Source: an uncultured Planctomycetales bacterium
GTDB lineage: Bacteria > Omnitrophota > Gorgyraeia > Gygaellales > Profunditerraquicolaceae
NCBI GenBank assembly: GCA_964645795.1
Contig: CAZYCL010000001.1
Span: forward strand, 287,194-351,193
Length of the DNA stretch: 64,000 nucleotides
Direction: 5' to 3'
The position numbers were made by a program, and so were the translations under genes. Positions 22,297 through 43,749 of this stretch are shown here, in pieces. A model generated the notes under the pieces. It saw nothing but the letters and a program-made list of their open reading frames with translations. It was not told the DNA's origin and ran no database searches. Every line of letters starts with the position of its first letter. Positions within the stretch are counted from its first letter, which is position 1.

Positions 22297-24254
<1,958 letters not shown>

Positions 24255-24258
<4 letters not shown>

Positions 24259-34678: not shown

Positions 34679-35351
34679 ACCGGGCGATGATATACTTATC
34701 CGTTGTCAGGGTTTAAGCAAAACCTATCCCAATACCCGGACCAATGCCCTGCGCCAGGTCCAGCTTGACATCCGCCGCGCTGAATTCATAAGCATTACCG
34801 GCCCCAGCGGCAGCGGCAAATCTACCTTCCTTAATATTCTCGCCGCGCTTATTGAGCCAACAGAAGGAGAAGTGTCCTTCAGGGGCCGCCCGTACTCAGA
34901 GATAAAAAATAAACCACTTTTCAGGCGCGAGAATATCGGCTATATCTTCCAGGACTTCTATCTCTACCCCGGTTTCAGCGCGCTGGAAAACATCCTTATC
35001 GCCAGTGCCTACAGCCTCCTCAGGCCGCGCTCACTTAAAGACCGGGCCTTAGAGCTCCTCTCCTATCTTAATCTGGGCTCAAAAGCATTACTTAAGGTAA
35101 ATACGCTTTCTGCCGGAGAGCGCCAGAGGGTTTGTATCGCCCGGGCCCTCATTCACCAGCCGGCGCTGATCCTGGCGGATGAGCCTACCGGCAGCCTCGA
35201 CAGCAATAACGCAAGGGCCATTATGGATATCTTAAAGGTAATCAACGCCGAGAAGGAAGCGACCATTATCATGGCTACCCATGATATGCGCATGGCCGGC
35301 TATGCCCACAGGAACATAGCAATTGAGGATGGGGTCCTTAGGAGATCTTAA
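34671..35351 (+). CDS. ABC transporter ATP-binding protein (LolD/MacB-ATPase type)
   Basis: [35 protein letters not shown]. Confidence 0.85.
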   Translation: MNKPGDDILIRCQGLSKTYPNTRTNALRQVQLDIRRAEFISITGPSGSGKSTFLNILAALIEPTEGEVSFRGRPYSEIKNKPLFRRENIGYIFQDFYLYPGFSALENILIASAYSLLRPRSLKDRALELLSYLNLGSKALLKVNTLSAGERQRVCIARALIHQPALILADEPTGSLDSNNARAIMDILKVINAEKEATIIMATHDMRMAGYAHRNIAIEDGVLRRS

Positions 35352-35640
35352 CGGAAAATTGCATTATATGAATGGTCAGAATTGCCACGCCCAGCGCAAT
35401 ACGCAGGCACCGGTATAGCTGCTGCCTGGCAGAGCTCTCCCTGTGCCTGAAGATATCTACCCAGCCTTCCAAAACCAGAAACCCTCCCATGATCAGGGCC
35501 GAGACATCCACCGTGACCGGGTCAAGATAGCTGCAGCCGCGCACCTCTTTATTGGCGCTGCTCTGAATAAGGAAAGCGCCGACAAAGGCTAAAAGGCTCA
35601 AGAGCCAGGCCTGGATCTCTGTCTTGTTTATGTTATTCAT
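35338..35640 (-). CDS. Small hypothetical membrane protein
   Basis: 100 aa, 3 predicted TM helices, last gene of the iron-locus transcription unit. Confidence 0.35.
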   Translation of the reverse strand: MNNINKTEIQAWLLSLLAFVGAFLIQSSANKEVRGCSYLDPVTVDVSALIMGGFLVLEGWVDIFRHRESSARQQLYRCLRIALGVAILTIHIMQFSVKIS

Positions 35641-35651
35641 GAAGATTTCTG

Positions 35652-36527
35652 TTAAACCTCGATCCCGAACACATTCCTTATCGCCAGCCCGATGAGAAAG
35701 TTAATCGCTGCGACGCTAAGGCTTATCCCGGCCATCTCCAGGAACCTTTTCCTGAAATCAAGCCCTTTAGCCACCGAAATGTAGTAGGTAAAGCAGAATA
35801 TCAAAATAAGCGAAAAGGCGACTACCAGGCCCAGGCAAAGAAACATATTATCAAACAATAAGTAGGGAAAGACCAAAAGCGCTACGGTCCCGATATAGGC
35901 GCTTCCCGTATAGATACTGGCCTTAACGGGGTCCTTGTCCGTCTCTTCGTGCTTGGTAGAAAGGTACTCGGAGGCAGCCATAGACATGGCAGCGGCAATG
36001 CCGGTGATCAGCCCCACGACGGCAATAAGCTTTGTCTTCTGCAGTGCAAGCGTAAACCCGACCAGGGCGCCGCTTAACTCTACCAGGGCGTCGTTAAGGC
36101 CCAGCACCATGGAGCTGACGTACTTTAGTCGCTCCTCGTCTATCAGGCTGATCAGTTCGTTCTCATGGCTCTTTTCGTCCTTGATCACCTCTTCTATTTT
36201 AGGCGAAACTTCTTTAATCTTTTCATAGGCATCCTGGGCCAGGTCCTCGCCGTTTTCCATGAGCTTTAAGCCGAAGTTCAGGCCCAAGATCTTAGAGATA
36301 GCCACAAAGATAAGGATCTTGCGCTTATCAGGGGAAACCTCCTGACCGGTAAGGGTTTTGAAATAATCGTAATGCGCCAGCTCTTCGCCGGCTATCCTCT
36401 CCAGGATTTCGGCGTGCTTTGAGGCCTTTACAAATCCGGCCAGCTTCTTATAAACCACATGCTCGGTGATCTCATTCCTCTGCGCCCGCAGGGCCTCTCT
36501 TCTCAAGCCAGGGCTTAATGGATCCAT
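35652..36527 (-). CDS. MbfA-like membrane-bound erythrin-VIT1 iron exporter (ferritin-like N-terminal domain plus VIT1/CCC1 domain)
   Basis: N-terminal E...ExxH ferritin-like helices (EELAHYDYF, DEKSHENEL) followed by VIT1-type TM helices. Confidence 0.7.
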   Translation of the reverse strand: MDPLSPGLRREALRAQRNEITEHVVYKKLAGFVKASKHAEILERIAGEELAHYDYFKTLTGQEVSPDKRKILIFVAISKILGLNFGLKLMENGEDLAQDAYEKIKEVSPKIEEVIKDEKSHENELISLIDEERLKYVSSMVLGLNDALVELSGALVGFTLALQKTKLIAVVGLITGIAAAMSMAASEYLSTKHEETDKDPVKASIYTGSAYIGTVALLVFPYLLFDNMFLCLGLVVAFSLILIFCFTYYISVAKGLDFRKRFLEMAGISLSVAAINFLIGLAIRNVFGIEV

Positions 36528-36552: not shown

Positions 36553-36852
36553 CTACCTTTTTCTTATTTCTTCCTCTACCTCTTCTGCGCCCTCATCGTA
36601 GAACTTCTGCTCATCAGGGGCCAGCTCCTTTAAGAGCCTCAGGAACTCTCCTGCATGCACTTTTTCTTCATCCGCGATATCCCTTAAGACTTCCTGCGAC
36701 AGTTTATGGTCGGTTGACTCCGCAAGCTGCATATAAAGCTGTATCGCCTCGTACTCCGCGGCGATCATGAAGCGGATAGCGCGGATAAGCTCCTCTTTGG
36801 CGATCTTCTTATCCCTGGATAGCCCTGAAAACGGCGTGCAAAATTCCGGCAT
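36553..36852 (-). CDS. Two-helix erythrin/half-ferritin-like protein (single E...ExxH diiron half-site)
   Basis: AAEYEAIQLY on helix 1 and ADEEKVHAGEF on helix 2. 99 aa. SD AGGAGG. Confidence 0.5.
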   Translation of the reverse strand: MPEFCTPFSGLSRDKKIAKEELIRAIRFMIAAEYEAIQLYMQLAESTDHKLSQEVLRDIADEEKVHAGEFLRLLKELAPDEQKFYDEGAEEVEEEIRKR

Positions 36853-36871
36853 GACAAACCTCCTTTATTGT

Positions 36872-37000
36872 TTAACCTTTGATCTTTACCATCGGCTGCT
36901 GGCAGCAGACCAGCTCCCCGCCGCCTGCCTTCTTAACCTCCACGACATTGCCGCAGACTTCGCACTTATATACTTCTCCCTCTTTTTCTACTCTTGCCAT
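36872..37000 (-). CDS. Desulforedoxin-like small protein (42 aa). Not in the ORF track.
   Basis: Minus strand: [42 protein letters not shown], with CxxC...CC spacing like desulforedoxin. AGGAGGGGG SD lies 6 nt upstream. Confidence 0.6.
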
Positions 37001-37021
37001 ACCCCCTCCTGTCCAAAGATT

Positions 37022-37765
37022 TTATTTTACTTCCACCGTAGCGTTAGAGTCAAAAGGATTGGTCCTGGCTGCCAGCGAAAAAAGATACGGGTAATCGTGT
37101 TTTAGGTACTTCATATGATCCAGCCACTGCAGGATAAGCCCGTGGTAGGCCCTCTTTATGTCTCCAGCCAGATGCTGATAATCCGTATCCGGCAGCTTCT
37201 TTAAGTCTGCGCGGTGCGCCAGCTCATCGGTCAGGTGGAATACCGCCCAAAGCAGATTGGTAAATGACTCGTGCTCCAGCATATTGGGGTTCTCCAGCAG
37301 CCCGAGCATGAACTGCCTTTTGGAAACCAGGAAATCCTTTACTTCTGCCAAGCCCCCCTTTTTGCTGTCAACCCCTATATCGAAGCCCTCTATCTTCTTG
37401 CGCGCAGAGATAAACTCCTTATCCGACCAGTCTTTGGTCACTACCAACTGCGCAGCCAGCCTTGAAAGCTCCGGGGCAAACTGCGAGCACCTCTTCAAGA
37501 GCTCAGTGCCCACTTCGCTGAAAAAAGTCCCGATGACCATGTTCAGCTTCTTCATGATCGTCTGTTTCTCCCGGTATTCAAGCAAGCGGTGCAGGACCAG
37601 CATCACGATCAGCACATCCAAAAAAAGAAAAGCAATGTCGCCTACAAGATAAAGGAATATATGGTGGGCGTCCCTGAATATAAAATAGTGGATAAAATAG
37701 AAAAGCGCCGAGAGAAAAACCAGGATGAGCGCCAGTATGAGCTGCCAGCTGCGAATAAGCTTCAT
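37022..37765 (-). CDS. Hypothetical membrane protein (3 TM helices plus a cytoplasmic domain)
   Basis: 247 aa, no recognisable motif. It is the first gene before the desulforedoxin gene. Confidence 0.4.
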   Translation of the reverse strand: MKLIRSWQLILALILVFLSALFYFIHYFIFRDAHHIFLYLVGDIAFLFLDVLIVMLVLHRLLEYREKQTIMKKLNMVIGTFFSEVGTELLKRCSQFAPELSRLAAQLVVTKDWSDKEFISARKKIEGFDIGVDSKKGGLAEVKDFLVSKRQFMLGLLENPNMLEHESFTNLLWAVFHLTDELAHRADLKKLPDTDYQHLAGDIKRAYHGLILQWLDHMKYLKHDYPYLFSLAARTNPFDSNATVEVK

Positions 37766-37779
37766 TTACCTACCTCTTT

Positions 37780-38592
37780 CTAGCCGAATGCCACATCCAG
37801 TATCATCATCGCCAAAAACCCTAAAATCGTACCTGCCGTAGCCAGGTCAGTATGGCCGTTGCGTTGTGATTCGGGTATGACCTCTTCGACTACGACGAAT
37901 ATCATCGCCCCTGCGGCAAAACCCAGGGCATAAGGAAGCAATGGCCTGGCCCATAAAACCGCTGCCGCGCCTAATACTGCGGCAATGGGTTCAACAATCG
38001 CGGAAAGCTGGCCGAACCAAAAACTCCTGAACTTGGACATTTTTTCGCGGCGAAGCGTTATCGATACGGCGAAGCCTTCAGGTATATTCTGGATGCCTAT
38101 ACCAAACGAAAGCACTATTGCCGCAGCCATTGTGGCTTCCGGTAAACCTAAAGCCGCCGCCCCGATTGCCACTCCCACAGCCAGGCCTTCCGGAATATTA
38201 TGCAACGTTATTGCCAGTATCAAGAGCACGCTTCGGCGCCAGGAAGTTTTTAGTCCTTCGGCCTCGGAAACGGAAAACCCCAGATGCAGATGGGGTAATA
38301 CCTTATCGATAGACCTTAAAAACAGGGTCCCTAAAAGGAGGCCGGCAGCGGCAGGCATCCAGGGGATCGTCCCGGCGTGATACGACATCTCGATCGCCGG
38401 AGAAAGCAGCGACCAGAAGCTTGCCGCCAGCATCACCCCGGCGGCAAATCCGAGCATGGAATCAAAGACCTTCTGGCTAAAATCTTTTGTGATAAATATG
38501 AAGGCAGCGCCCAAAGCAGTAAGCAGCCAGGTAAAACCGCCCGCTGCCAGCGCCTGCAATACGGGATGATAATTCTCGATATTAACGCTCAT
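37780..38592 (-). CDS. ZIP family metal (Zn/Fe) permease (ZupT-like)
   Basis: HNIPEGLAVG and QNIPEGFAV motifs. 8 TM helices. Confidence 0.8.
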   Translation of the reverse strand: MSVNIENYHPVLQALAAGGFTWLLTALGAAFIFITKDFSQKVFDSMLGFAAGVMLAASFWSLLSPAIEMSYHAGTIPWMPAAAGLLLGTLFLRSIDKVLPHLHLGFSVSEAEGLKTSWRRSVLLILAITLHNIPEGLAVGVAIGAAALGLPEATMAAAIVLSFGIGIQNIPEGFAVSITLRREKMSKFRSFWFGQLSAIVEPIAAVLGAAAVLWARPLLPYALGFAAGAMIFVVVEEVIPESQRNGHTDLATAGTILGFLAMMILDVAFG

Positions 38593-38658
38593 ATGTTCGT
38601 ATTATACCAAGTCCGGGGGGCGCCTGCAACAGAAACAGGCGCCCCCTTGACAGCCGTT

Positions 38659-39210
38659 TTACTTCAGGAACTTAGAGACAAAAGGCGACGTCTCGCCGCG
38701 GCGCATAAAATGCCCGGAAGGGCCTTCGCCGAGGAATTCGGCAAACCAGGACTCGTGCTCGATCTCTTCGTTAAGTATGGCCAGGACCAGATCGTAGGTG
38801 CGGTGGTCTTTGCCAGCGGTCATATTGCATATCTCGGTGTAACCCTTGACCGCGCATCTTTCCGCGTTAGCCAGGACCTTCAATATCCCCTCGACATCTT
38901 CGGGCGACTTCGGAAGATTCGCCGGCGGACATGCAGAAAGGTCATGGAACTTCTTCATGCAGTCCGGAAGCTTGCCTCCCAGCTCATAGATACGCGGGAC
39001 CAGCGCCTCAAAGTGGTTGCGGTCTTCGATCCTGGCGGTCTCGGCTATTTCCTTGACCCCCTCGCCCTTTAAACCAATTAGGTTGGCACGCAAGATCGTA
39101 TAATAGTAATAGGTGGTGATCTCTGCCGACGCGTTCTTTATCAACAGGTCCAACAACTTATCCAAATCCACTCCCGACTGTTTAACCATCTCGATCGCTA
39201 CTTTTGCCAT
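38659..39210 (-). CDS. Ferritin-like diiron protein (bacterioferritin/DPS-like family)
   Basis: Four-helix-bundle ligand pattern: SAEITTYYYY, IEDRNHFE, ANAERCAV, LNEEIEHESW. Confidence 0.6.
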   Translation of the reverse strand: MAKVAIEMVKQSGVDLDKLLDLLIKNASAEITTYYYYTILRANLIGLKGEGVKEIAETARIEDRNHFEALVPRIYELGGKLPDCMKKFHDLSACPPANLPKSPEDVEGILKVLANAERCAVKGYTEICNMTAGKDHRTYDLVLAILNEEIEHESWFAEFLGEGPSGHFMRRGETSPFVSKFLK

Positions 39211-39290: not shown

Positions 39291-39306
39291 ATTACTAATT
39301 AGTAAT
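39291..39306. promoter_or_regulatory. Perfect 16-bp palindrome ATTACTAATTAGTAAT (candidate Fur/PerR-type operator) upstream of the ferritin-like gene
   Basis: Read directly. It lies between the fur 3' end and the ferritin-like gene start, followed by a third half-site TATTACTAA. Confidence 0.4.
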
Positions 39307-39335
39307 TATTACTAACGTTAAACCAAAAAAAAATT

Positions 39336-39779
39336 TTACTTCTTCTTAGCGCACTGCCCGCAGATGCCCTCTAAAACCACTTTCTTGTTTAAAATATTGA
39401 ACCTCGACTTTATCTCTTCGGGTATTTTGATATTATCGTAGTATTCGTTATAAAAATCCACTATCTTATGGCACCTGGCGCACCTGAAGTGGTGATGGGT
39501 TCTTGTGTTGGGGTCAAAACGCTTGGACCCTCCGTAGCCCTCCACTATATTGATCAGCCCTATATCGGAAAGCGAGATGACCGTCCTGTATACGGTATCG
39601 AATGATATATTGGGAAAGGCCGCTTTTATCCTTTTCAGTATCGCCTCAATAGAAGGATGGTCTTCTGCCTTCACCAGCTCCTTGTATATTTCGGTGCGCT
39701 GCGGCGTAAGCTTAAGCCCGCGGCTGCGGCAGGCCTGCCTGAAGCGTTCCATGGCCTCCTGAACATCTGTTTTATGCAT
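39336..39779 (-). CDS. Fur family transcriptional regulator (Fur/PerR/Zur)
   Basis: Winged-helix N-terminus, HHHFRCARC and CGQC metal sites. Confidence 0.85.
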   Translation of the reverse strand: MHKTDVQEAMERFRQACRSRGLKLTPQRTEIYKELVKAEDHPSIEAILKRIKAAFPNISFDTVYRTVISLSDIGLINIVEGYGGSKRFDPNTRTHHHFRCARCHKIVDFYNEYYDNIKIPEEIKSRFNILNKKVVLEGICGQCAKKK

Positions 39780-39782
39780 GTT

Positions 39783-39814
39783 ATTATTATGTAATAATTA
39801 TTCTTATCTGTCAA
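39783..39814 (-). promoter_or_regulatory. Promoter TTGACA-17-CATAAT, 6 nt before the fur ATG (leaderless), overlapped by the inverted repeat ATTATTA-TG-TAATAAT
   Basis: The minus strand reads TTGACAGATAAGAATAATTATTACATAATAATAACATG. The inverted repeat is at 39783-39798. Confidence 0.4.
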
Positions 39815-43432: not shown

Positions 43433-43749
43433 TCCCCCTTAGCTCAGTCGGTAGAGCGAGTGGCTGTCAAATCCCGCCAGTGGCGGGATTTGTGCCTAAC
43501 GCAGAGGCGTTCGGCACAAGAGGCAGCTTCCTTGGGAAACCAGGGTTGAAACAGCGGGCTAATTCAGGGAAGTCCCGAGAGATCGGGATAATCCTGAGCT
43601 AAGTCTCCAGTTTAAGGAGTAAATGCGCAGAGACTATACACCCGCCTCCTAAAGCGAAAGCTACGGAGAAGAGATAGTCCACTTCCGGAAGTAATTCCGG
43701 GTCAAGTGTAACCACCAGGTCCGAGGTTCGAGTCCTCGAGGGGGAGCCA
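43433..43749 (+). tRNA. tRNA-Asn (anticodon GUU) interrupted by a group I intron. Exons are 43433-43467 and 43709-43749, including the encoded CCA.
   Basis: Joined exons give TCCCCCT-TA-GCTC-AGTCGGTA-GAGC-G-AGTGG-CTGTTAA-CCACC-AGGTC-CGAGG-TTCGAGT-CCTCG-AGGGGGA-G-CCA. The acceptor stem is 7 bp, U1-A72, G73, the canonical Asn anticodon loop CUGUUAA, a T-loop TTCGAGT, and an Asn-like D-loop. Confidence 0.7.
43468..43708 (+). other. Group I self-splicing intron (~241 nt) between anticodon positions 35 and 36 of tRNA-Asn
   Basis: R-like CAGAGACTATACA (43629-43641) and S-like AAGAGATAGTCC (43669-43680) form P7 (GACTAT/ATAGTC). There are three GNRA-capped hairpins (GAAA, GAAA, GTAA), a terminal omega-G (43708), and the 5' exon ends in U. 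It is too short to encode a homing endonuclease. Confidence 0.65.

Follow-up and report, generated by a model that had tools for sequence, protein, structure and literature searches.

The 64-kb stretch of DNA analysed here (the window) carries, at 36872..37000 on the minus strand, a coding sequence of 42 codons plus a TAA stop that is best explained as a genuine, predicted to be translated, stand-alone desulforedoxin (Dx) gene, whose product would very probably act as an FeS4 electron carrier to ROS-detoxifying or iron-handling metalloproteins. The desulforedoxin family has been known since the 1970s–1990s and consists of tiny iron-binding electron-carrier proteins of anaerobes. The assignment is carried by matches to the family models PF06397 and TIGR00319 and to the desulforedoxin of D. 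gigas, together with a substitution bias towards third codon positions. Public resources already contain the family with its models and product name, as well as thousands of stand-alone copies, and gene calls exist for the exact sequence; the window Dx is therefore an ordinary, known kind of gene. Taken alone it matters little, being one more uncharacterised orthologue of a kind that Pfam, NCBIfam and ordinary gene callers already recover. Of modest wider interest are its neighbours in the window and at related loci, which bear on the question of what a stand-alone desulforedoxin serves.

Sequence features and family membership

The ATG of the Dx coding sequence is the first start codon past the upstream in-frame stop in the translated open reading frame (ORF), and the 42 residues quoted in the original prediction are exactly those encoded. 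The strong Shine-Dalgarno (SD) sequence that had been pointed out is also present: AGGAGGGGG (37002..37010, minus strand) lies one base 5′ of the ATG, its AGGAGG core is 4 nt from the ATG, and GGAGG-type sites 5–9 nt 5′ of the starts occur at homologous Dx loci as well. The predicted cysteine spacing of desulforedoxin, CxxC followed by CC, was likewise borne out, with the four metal-ligand codons (36902..36964, minus strand) encoding Cys13 (36964-36962), Cys16 (36955-36953), Cys32 (36907-36905) and Cys33 (36904-36902) in a CxxC-X15-CC arrangement, after which the ORF terminates nine codons past the CC pair. The pattern CXXCX15CC is the defining conserved metal-binding signature of the Dx domain (SORGOdb, PMC3116461).

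With 50 ORFs of at least 30 aa overlapping the surrounding 6-kb stretch, a length of 42 codons is unremarkable by itself; short ORFs are frequent by chance, so that the case for Dx has to be made from homology and conservation and not from the presence of an ORF. Comparison with Pfam PF06397 (Desulfoferrod_N), the check that had been proposed, gave 64.1 bits against a cutoff of 23 (E 8.6e-18, model positions 2-36 of 36), and NCBIfam TIGR00319, whose product name is [quoted passage not shown], was matched at 59.2 bits (cutoff 36.05, model positions 3-34 of 34). The best solved relative is the 36-residue D. gigas desulforedoxin (1DXG/1CFW; phmmer E 1.3e-10), to residues 2-35 of which residues 6-39 of the window protein align with 22 of 34 positions identical (~65%), and the next-best solved relatives are the N-terminal domains of desulfoferrodoxins (Dfx). 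Across 49 aligned sequences, i.e., 48 homologues and the D. gigas protein, C13, C16, C32, C33, G8, G26-G28 and L30 are invariant, and with them the GGG-x-L motif. A whole-domain profile match, the CxxC-X15-CC spacing, a stand-alone chain in the range of ~36–45 aa and homology to the D. gigas protein were all found, and by every feature testable in silico the window ORF is a member of the desulforedoxin family.

Like the D. gigas protein (1DXG, 1CFW, 1DCD, 1DHG, 2LK5, 2LK6), the window Dx is a stand-alone peptide of ~40 aa with the same cysteine spacing, two adjacent cysteines and a GGG-x-LVCC core. It differs in being six residues longer (N-terminal MARVEK, C-terminal KIKG), in having Gln-Gln-Pro past the CC pair where the D. 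gigas protein has Gly-Glu-Asp, and in being encoded in a metal-homeostasis operon of an uncultured lineage, probably of the Omnitrophota, where it is known from sequence alone. The centre-I domain of desulfoferrodoxin, or 2Fe-SOR (1DFX, 1VZG, 2JI1; the “Dx-SOR” class of SORGOdb), belongs to the same PF06397 family, and the window Dx is ~62% identical over 37 residues to the fused Dfx of a related locus (L079), but it is without the C-terminal PF01880 SOR domain and stops after 42 codons. An identity as desulfoferrodoxin was rejected on a score of 47 bits against TIGR00320 (cutoff 146.9, model positions 4-36 of 125) with PF01880 unmatched, and in tblastn searches of the window with SOR and Dfx queries only the Dx part was matched. 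Rubredoxin resembles the window Dx in being a small protein that carries one electron on a mononuclear Fe(SCys)4 site, and its gene often accompanies the oxidative-stress genes of anaerobes, but it has two CxxC pairs and another fold, whereas the second pair of the window Dx is a contiguous CC; this identity was rejected as well, with PF00301 unmatched and CC in place of the second CxxC.

Conservation and annotation of the gene

Gene calls for an identical protein of 42 aa (P0001), annotated with PF06397, exist on at least 12 public contigs from NCBI and Logan assemblies, and at the six places that were fetched the nucleotides are identical to those of the window and the neighbours present are the same genes. 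Counting one genome per GTDB species, there are at least 586 related loci, and 747 clusters (50%-identity representatives) match Dx at E <= 1e-3, the top 150 of which are mostly short ORFs. The nearest homologues are encoded in Omnitrophota metagenome-assembled genomes (MAGs), where Dx is 83–88% identical to the window protein and the products of neighbouring genes have close homologues too (ZIP 89%, Dps 84%, and also the EncFtn-like protein). The window thus probably belongs to an Omnitrophota genome. Further loci come from a wide range of bacteria and archaea, among them Planctomycetota, Auribacterota, Atribacterota, WOR-3, Dehalococcoidales/Chloroflexota, Halanaerobium, Methanomicrobiales, Hadarchaeota and Bathyarchaeota. 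A stop 3–8 codons past “CC..PM” makes the protein a stand-alone peptide in 79 of the best 80 loci (GTDB species representatives), the only fused case among them being the 125-aa Dfx of L079.

The nucleotide differences between the window Dx and 15 homologous loci fall mostly on third codon positions of the minus frame; at codon positions 1/2/3 they number, for example, 3/3/20 against L015 and 3/3/22 against L017. With dN at 0.07–0.33 and dS saturated across these 15 comparisons, the Dx frame is conserved in relatives, a point that had been put forward for checking, and is under purifying selection; neither of the outcomes named beforehand as counting against the prediction was observed. The comparative data refute the view that the ORF is non-functional, which would make it a chance ORF, a decayed remnant of a desulfoferrodoxin N-terminus, or the shadow of a 112-aa antisense ORF (36767..37105, plus strand) that overlaps it. 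The shortness of Dx and the overlapping plus-strand ORF could be cited in favour of this view, but a profile E-value of 9e-18, the third-position bias in the minus frame, the SD of its own, and the retention of the stop position and the stand-alone state in 79 of the best 80 loci, which span many phyla, are against it, as are the unrelated intact gene that follows downstream in another frame and the antisense ORF itself, for which no Pfam family match was found. We regard a non-functional ORF as almost certainly wrong.

The gene had been described as unannotated and as one that standard annotation would miss. The former is accurate for the ORF list that accompanied the sequence, from which Dx is absent because the first-stage length cutoff was 60 aa, and which displays the antisense ORF instead; it does not extend to the public contigs, on which the identical protein has been called. 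The latter did not stand. Eight homologues of 40–57 aa bear the NCBI name [quoted passage not shown], and the JGI name for homologues of this size is “desulfoferrodoxin-like iron-binding protein”; since NCBI and JGI call and name such homologues, standard pipelines do find Dx genes. A 60-aa cutoff, for its part, hides real small metalloprotein genes and puts a spurious antisense ORF on display in their place. Elsewhere in the window, a record look-up for the protein encoded at 22297-24258 gave no result.

The gene cluster around Dx and its putative control

Dx lies within a tight series of minus-strand genes that begins with a ZIP/ZupT-like divalent-metal transporter (37780..38592; PF02535 at 89.6 bits, and the ZupT model at 125 bits, below its cutoff). 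Next comes an MJ1433-like membrane protein of 247 aa with no assigned function (37022..37765; PF27246/PF27232), the stop of which is 21 nt 5′ of the Dx start; no relative of it was found in the PDB, and a literature search for MJ1433 returned nothing. Dx is followed by a gene for a 99-aa EncFtn-like half-ferritin (36553..36852; NCBIfam EncB_fam at 92.8 bits with a cutoff of 90, and PF02915), which starts 19 nt 3′ of the Dx stop in another reading frame and with its own SD; its best PDB relatives are the P. furiosus EncFtn (5N5E/2E0Z) and the M. xanthus EncC (7S8T). The next gene (35652..36527) encodes a membrane protein with an N-terminal ferritin-like and a VIT1/CCC1 part (PF02915 and PF01988), an architecture like that of MbfA, although the MbfA equivalog model scored far below its cutoff. 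MbfA-type proteins are iron exporters, the loss of which sensitises cells to iron and H2O2 (PMC4902296). The last gene of the cluster is a small predicted membrane ORF of 100 aa (35338..35640; 87 aa in public gene calls) for which there was no family match.

From ZIP to the last gene all genes are on the same strand, with gaps of 14, 21, 19, 25 and 11 nt. No terminator-like site was found in these gaps, the sole same-strand match in the cluster being inside the ZIP coding sequence (38296-38277). Given the short gaps and the lack of a terminator-like site within them, co-transcription of the cluster is likely. A candidate internal promoter for Dx, TTGACT-18-TAAAAT, situated 24 nt 5′ of the gene, was rejected as a by-product of C-terminal codons of the MJ1433-like gene (NPFD...VEVK and the stop) that are conserved in all relatives. 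Composition over 33–42 kb shows no anomaly (GC 0.43–0.56), and an origin of the region as a horizontal-transfer island was rejected.

Two further minus-strand genes lie upstream of the cluster. The nearer one encodes a Dps of the archaeal type, a DNA-protection/ferritin-like protein (38659..39210; NF009990 at 319 bits and NF040955 at 293 bits, both above cutoff), and the farther one a Fur-family regulator (39336..39779; PF01475 at 90.9 bits), for which the best model is PerR (NF052545, 104 bits, below the cutoff of 180). The dps promoter region contains a perfect 7-1-7 palindrome, TAGTAATnATTACTA (39300..39314, no strand assigned), a candidate Fur-family operator and the only exact match in the window; Fur-family operators of Bacillus subtilis have this 7-1-7 layout. 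A related box, GAATAATTATTAC (39791-39806), overlaps the near-consensus TTGACA-17-CATAAT promoter of the regulator gene. The Omnitrophota relative L021 has the same operator-like motifs at the equivalent places, and in the Auribacterota locus L075 the exact 15-mer TAGTAATnATTACTA stands between perR and an operon of Dx, peroxiredoxin and ferritin-like genes.

Before the ZIP-to-Dx part of the window cluster no operator-like box was found, all matches to TAGTAATnATTACTA with at most three mismatches being at the perR and dps promoters. The gene dps is followed by a GC-rich 11-bp hairpin without a U-tract (38616..38646, minus strand) and then by TGgTATAAT (−10 hexamer 38601-38606) just 5′ of the ZIP start, and the 70-nt dps–ZIP intergenic RNA has an MFE of −34.6 kcal/mol. 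In L021, the equivalent hairpin has a T-run and precedes TGATAGAAT. Control of the window Dx by the predicted regulator is possible, for instance through read-through of the U-less hairpin.

Recurrent neighbours and possible partners

Neighbours within three genes were counted at 79 stand-alone Dx loci, taken from the best 80, and their identities were confirmed by Pfam. The most frequent were 1-Cys peroxiredoxin (20 loci, 11 adjacent) and NADPH-dependent FMN reductase or flavodoxin-fold proteins (19 loci), followed by a ferredoxin-thioredoxin-reductase-like (FTR-like) protein with a rubredoxin domain (12 loci, 8 adjacent), heavy-metal P-type ATPases (10 loci), ferritin-like proteins (8 loci, 6 adjacent), one-iron SOR (7 loci, 6 adjacent), Fe/Mn SOD (7 loci, all adjacent), AhpD/CMD (6 loci) and ZIP (4 loci). 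Methanoregulaceae have the order Dx-CMD-peroxiredoxin adjoining rubrerythrin, and another lineage has rubrerythrin-Dx. Synteny with the window extends over PerR-Dps-ZIP-MJ1433-Dx-ferritin-like in L021, ZIP-MJ1433-Dx in L048, MJ1433-Dx-peroxiredoxin-ferritin-like in L023, PerR-Dx-peroxiredoxin-ferritin-like in L075, Dps-Dx-ZIP in L018 and ZIP-Dx-cupin in L046. The window itself does not encode SOR, peroxiredoxin, rubrerythrin, rubredoxin or FMN reductase, as judged by tblastn over the full 64 kb.

The closest associations of the window Dx are not fixed ones. In L021, L023, L048 and L130 the gene next to Dx on its upstream side is MJ1433-like, but an obligate MJ1433/Dx module was rejected on four further MJ1433-like loci without Dx, which adjoin FUR-Dps-ZIP, ferritin, VIT1 or ZnuABC genes. 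The EncFtn-like gene was surveyed at 80 loci, 79 of them with enough upstream sequence to judge, and Dx is located directly 5′ of it in 2 of the 79 (L130, with the order MJ1433-Dx-EncFtn-like, and L147, with Dx-EncFtn-like) and within 3 kb in 4 of the 80, Dx lying just downstream in L101 and 2.5 kb away in L117. MJ1433-like, ferritin-VIT1 and PerR genes are each adjacent to or near the EncFtn-like gene in 4–5 of the 80 loci. None of the best 80 Dx loci has an EncFtn-like gene, and an obligate Dx/EncFtn-like pairing was rejected on these counts. Read-through or fusion between the two was rejected too, the frames being different and the starts 148 nt apart, and no Dx domain was found in three longer EncFtn-like homologues that were read (152, 122 and 113 aa, among 120 listed). 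What emerges is a loose assortment of small metal-homeostasis and oxidative-stress genes that are reshuffled among anaerobes, to which Dx belongs only facultatively, and not a fixed two-gene machine.

To our knowledge, the physiological partner of a stand-alone desulforedoxin, even that of the D. gigas protein, has never been established. By analogy with D. gigas Dx and with the corresponding domains of desulfoferrodoxin and desulforubrerythrin, the window peptide would dimerise and hold one iron per chain, with Cys13, Cys16, Cys32 and Cys33 as the ligands of an Fe(SCys)4 centre whose tetrahedron is distorted by the adjacent cysteine pair. Such an FeS4 centre would cycle between Fe3+ and Fe2+, and Dx would most likely use it to carry single electrons to enzymes of oxidative-stress defence or iron detoxification; the gene neighbourhoods suggest that its electrons would pass to oxygen- or peroxide-detoxifying or iron-handling metalloproteins. 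Known Dx-like centres have potentials of ~0 mV, whereas that of the C. jejuni enzyme lies at +240 mV (PMC7482061).

Within the window operon, the most plausible acceptors would be the di-iron sites of the adjacent EncFtn-like and ferritin-VIT1 proteins, in an arrangement resembling a desulforubrerythrin split over separate genes. The desulforubrerythrin of C. jejuni has a Dx-type centre as electron-transfer site fused to a di-iron four-helix bundle (PMC7482061; PMC6006211), together with a rubredoxin domain, and it joins a Dx centre to a protein of the ferritin/rubrerythrin superfamily much as the window places the two in genes 19 nt apart. In the window, however, the polypeptides are separate, the neighbour is a 99-aa half-ferritin of the EncFtn type instead of a rubrerythrin and lacks a rubredoxin domain, a functional link between the two is no more than a hypothesis, and relatives seldom show the pairing; an identity as desulforubrerythrin was rejected, as Dx is not fused to a di-iron bundle. 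No encapsulin shell was found among the 16 ORFs of 247–346 aa in a Pfam scan or in the Pfam list for the surrounding ±6 kb. In its specific form, this proposal makes Dx, in this lineage, a redox partner dedicated to ferritin-VIT1 and to an EncFtn-like half-ferritin that is not encapsulated. In a strict anaerobe, the three together would couple the delivery of electrons either to the reduction of peroxide or oxygen or to the oxidation and export of iron. The 19-nt gap, the pairings in L130 and L147 and the ferritin-like genes of other kinds that adjoin Dx in six more loci are compatible with it, but we consider it unlikely; the rarity of the Dx/EncFtn-like pairing makes an obligate partnership improbable, and the pairing occurs too seldom to be a general rule. 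If true, it would provide the first defined physiological partner for desulforedoxin.

Two other roles have to be weighed against that of a carrier for the neighbouring detoxification and iron-handling proteins. Dx might be one half of a split two-iron SOR, supplying the centre-I module in trans to a one-iron SOR (neelaredoxin) encoded elsewhere, so that its position in the operon would reflect shared stress regulation only. The Dx domain is best known from its fused form, Dfx, and the PF01880 one-iron SOR found at 7 of the 79 loci is in six of them directly downstream of Dx (WOR-3, Methanofastidiosum and others). Most Dx loci, however, are without a nearby SOR, the 64-kb window holds no SOR domain, and in the syntenic relatives L021, L023, L048 and L075 no SOR adjoins Dx, which leaves this role rather doubtful for the window gene.

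The cysteine site could also serve mainly metal handling, as a Cys4 chaperone, buffer or sensor for Fe2+ or Zn2+ in concert with the ZIP importer, the MJ1433-like membrane protein and the VIT1 exporter. ZIP adjoins or is near Dx in the window as well as in L018, L021, L046 and L048, MJ1433-like genes occur alongside those for ZIP, VIT1, ZnuABC and ferritin, and the P-type heavy-metal ATPases at ten loci point in the same direction. The six PDB entries with the D. gigas Dx sequence presumably include Cd, Hg, Ga and Zn forms, so the site would not be iron-specific. The dominant neighbours across phyla, however, are redox enzymes of ROS defence (peroxiredoxin, SOR, SOD, FMN reductase and the FTR-like protein) and not metal transporters, and every characterised centre of the Dx type, i.e., that of Dx, of Dfx centre I and of desulforubrerythrin, is a redox-active FeS4. 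A mainly metal-handling function is thus hardly probable in our judgement, although carrier and metal-handling roles are not mutually exclusive.

The recurring neighbourhoods, which unite Dx with a Fur-family regulator, Dps and further ferritin-like proteins, peroxiredoxin, SOR or SOD, and ZIP or VIT1, help to narrow the question of the partner of a stand-alone Dx. These neighbourhoods recur in Omnitrophota, Planctomycetota, Auribacterota, WOR-3, Dehalococcoidales and Methanomicrobiales.

Genes flanking desulforedoxin in the metal cluster

The gene preceding desulforedoxin on the minus strand (37022..37765) encodes a 247-aa MJ1433-like protein, recognized by precomputed PF27246/PF27232 matches, in which an N-terminal pair of transmembrane helices is followed by a conserved helical domain. 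Its family is very large, with 7935 matches of which the best 120 share 66–83% identity, and is annotated uniformly as “hypothetical”; we found neither a relative in the PDB nor any literature on it. Because its members consistently adjoin genes for metal transporters and ferritins (ZIP, VIT1, ZnuABC, Dps, and EncFtn-like), the MJ1433-like protein is probably an uncharacterized component of metal homeostasis.

Downstream of desulforedoxin, NCBIfam and Pfam matches together with PDB relatives identify an EncFtn-type half-ferritin of 99 aa (36553..36852, minus strand). No C-terminal targeting peptide is evident on this protein, and an encapsulin gene was not found in the operon, in the Pfam list covering ±6 kb, or among the 16 Pfam-scanned ORFs of 247–346 aa in the window. 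The EncFtn-like family is huge and extremely conserved, with at least 8000 matches, the best 120 of them at ≥82% identity, and its members are mostly encoded alone. The half-ferritin may belong to the class that PMC11202242 describes under the name “s-FLP”.

ZIP start codon and candidate operators

Public gene calls place the start of the ZIP gene 45 codons further downstream than position 38592, which yields a protein of 225 aa. The 270-aa form that starts at 38592 is kept both in the syntenic Omnitrophota relative (L021) and in a second locus with the gene order ZIP-MJ1433-desulforedoxin (L048), and its residues 12–264 span profile positions 6–260 of the 266-position ZupT model. Just 8 nt separate a TGgTATAAT −10 element (38601..38609) from the ATG of this long form, whose mRNA would therefore be nearly leaderless.

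Two candidate operators of the Fur-family regulator were located, namely a perfect 7-1-7 palindrome, TAGTAATnATTACTA, before dps (39300..39314) and GAATAATTATTAC (39786..39814), overlapping the regulator gene's own promoter (TTGACA-17-CATAAT). Both are kept in L021 and in an Auribacterota locus (L075). The half-site differs at one position from the Zur box of Bacillus subtilis and at two from its Fur box and its PerR box, so the regulator may respond either to a metal or to peroxide.

Desulforedoxin in other genomes

Two stand-alone desulforedoxin paralogues are present in the Omnitrophota MAG JBFZAU01, in contexts that differ while both being metal-related: PerR-Dps-ZIP-MJ1433-desulforedoxin-ferritin-like on the contig of L021 versus ZIP-desulforedoxin-cupin on that of L046. 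Five loci from Dehalococcoidales/Chloroflexota (L020, L036, L044, L049, and L069) share a conserved cluster in the order P-type heavy-metal ATPase, tandem ferritin-like protein (~280 aa), and desulforedoxin, followed in all except L020, where another gene occupies this place, by an Fe/Mn superoxide dismutase and a small, putatively Rieske-like protein (CxH...CxxH, ~120 aa). This cluster represents a further recurrent desulforedoxin context, one that joins metal export with superoxide defence.

The search of 50%-identity cluster representatives also returned the homologues P0182, P0184, P0192 (~195 aa), P0207 (750 aa), and P0200 (111 aa), a set comprising proteins built of 4–11 tandem desulforedoxin-like repeats and one desulforedoxin fused to a C-terminal helix-turn-helix resembling sigma-70 region 4. 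Both forms are unusual architectures of the domain, observed here from sequences alone.

A tRNA-Asn gene split by a group I intron

A tRNA-Asn(GUU) gene on the plus strand (43433..43749; Rfam and ARAGORN) is split by a group I intron of 241 nt (43468..43708), inserted between anticodon positions 35 and 36 and covered over the full Rfam model RF00028 at 83.9 bits. A literature search for group I introns in tRNA-Asn returned only papers on organelles. ARAGORN detects no tRNA in the raw window, and after in silico splicing at ...CTGT/...AAGTG/TAACC... (slashes mark the cuts) it reports a clean tRNA-Asn of 76 nt.
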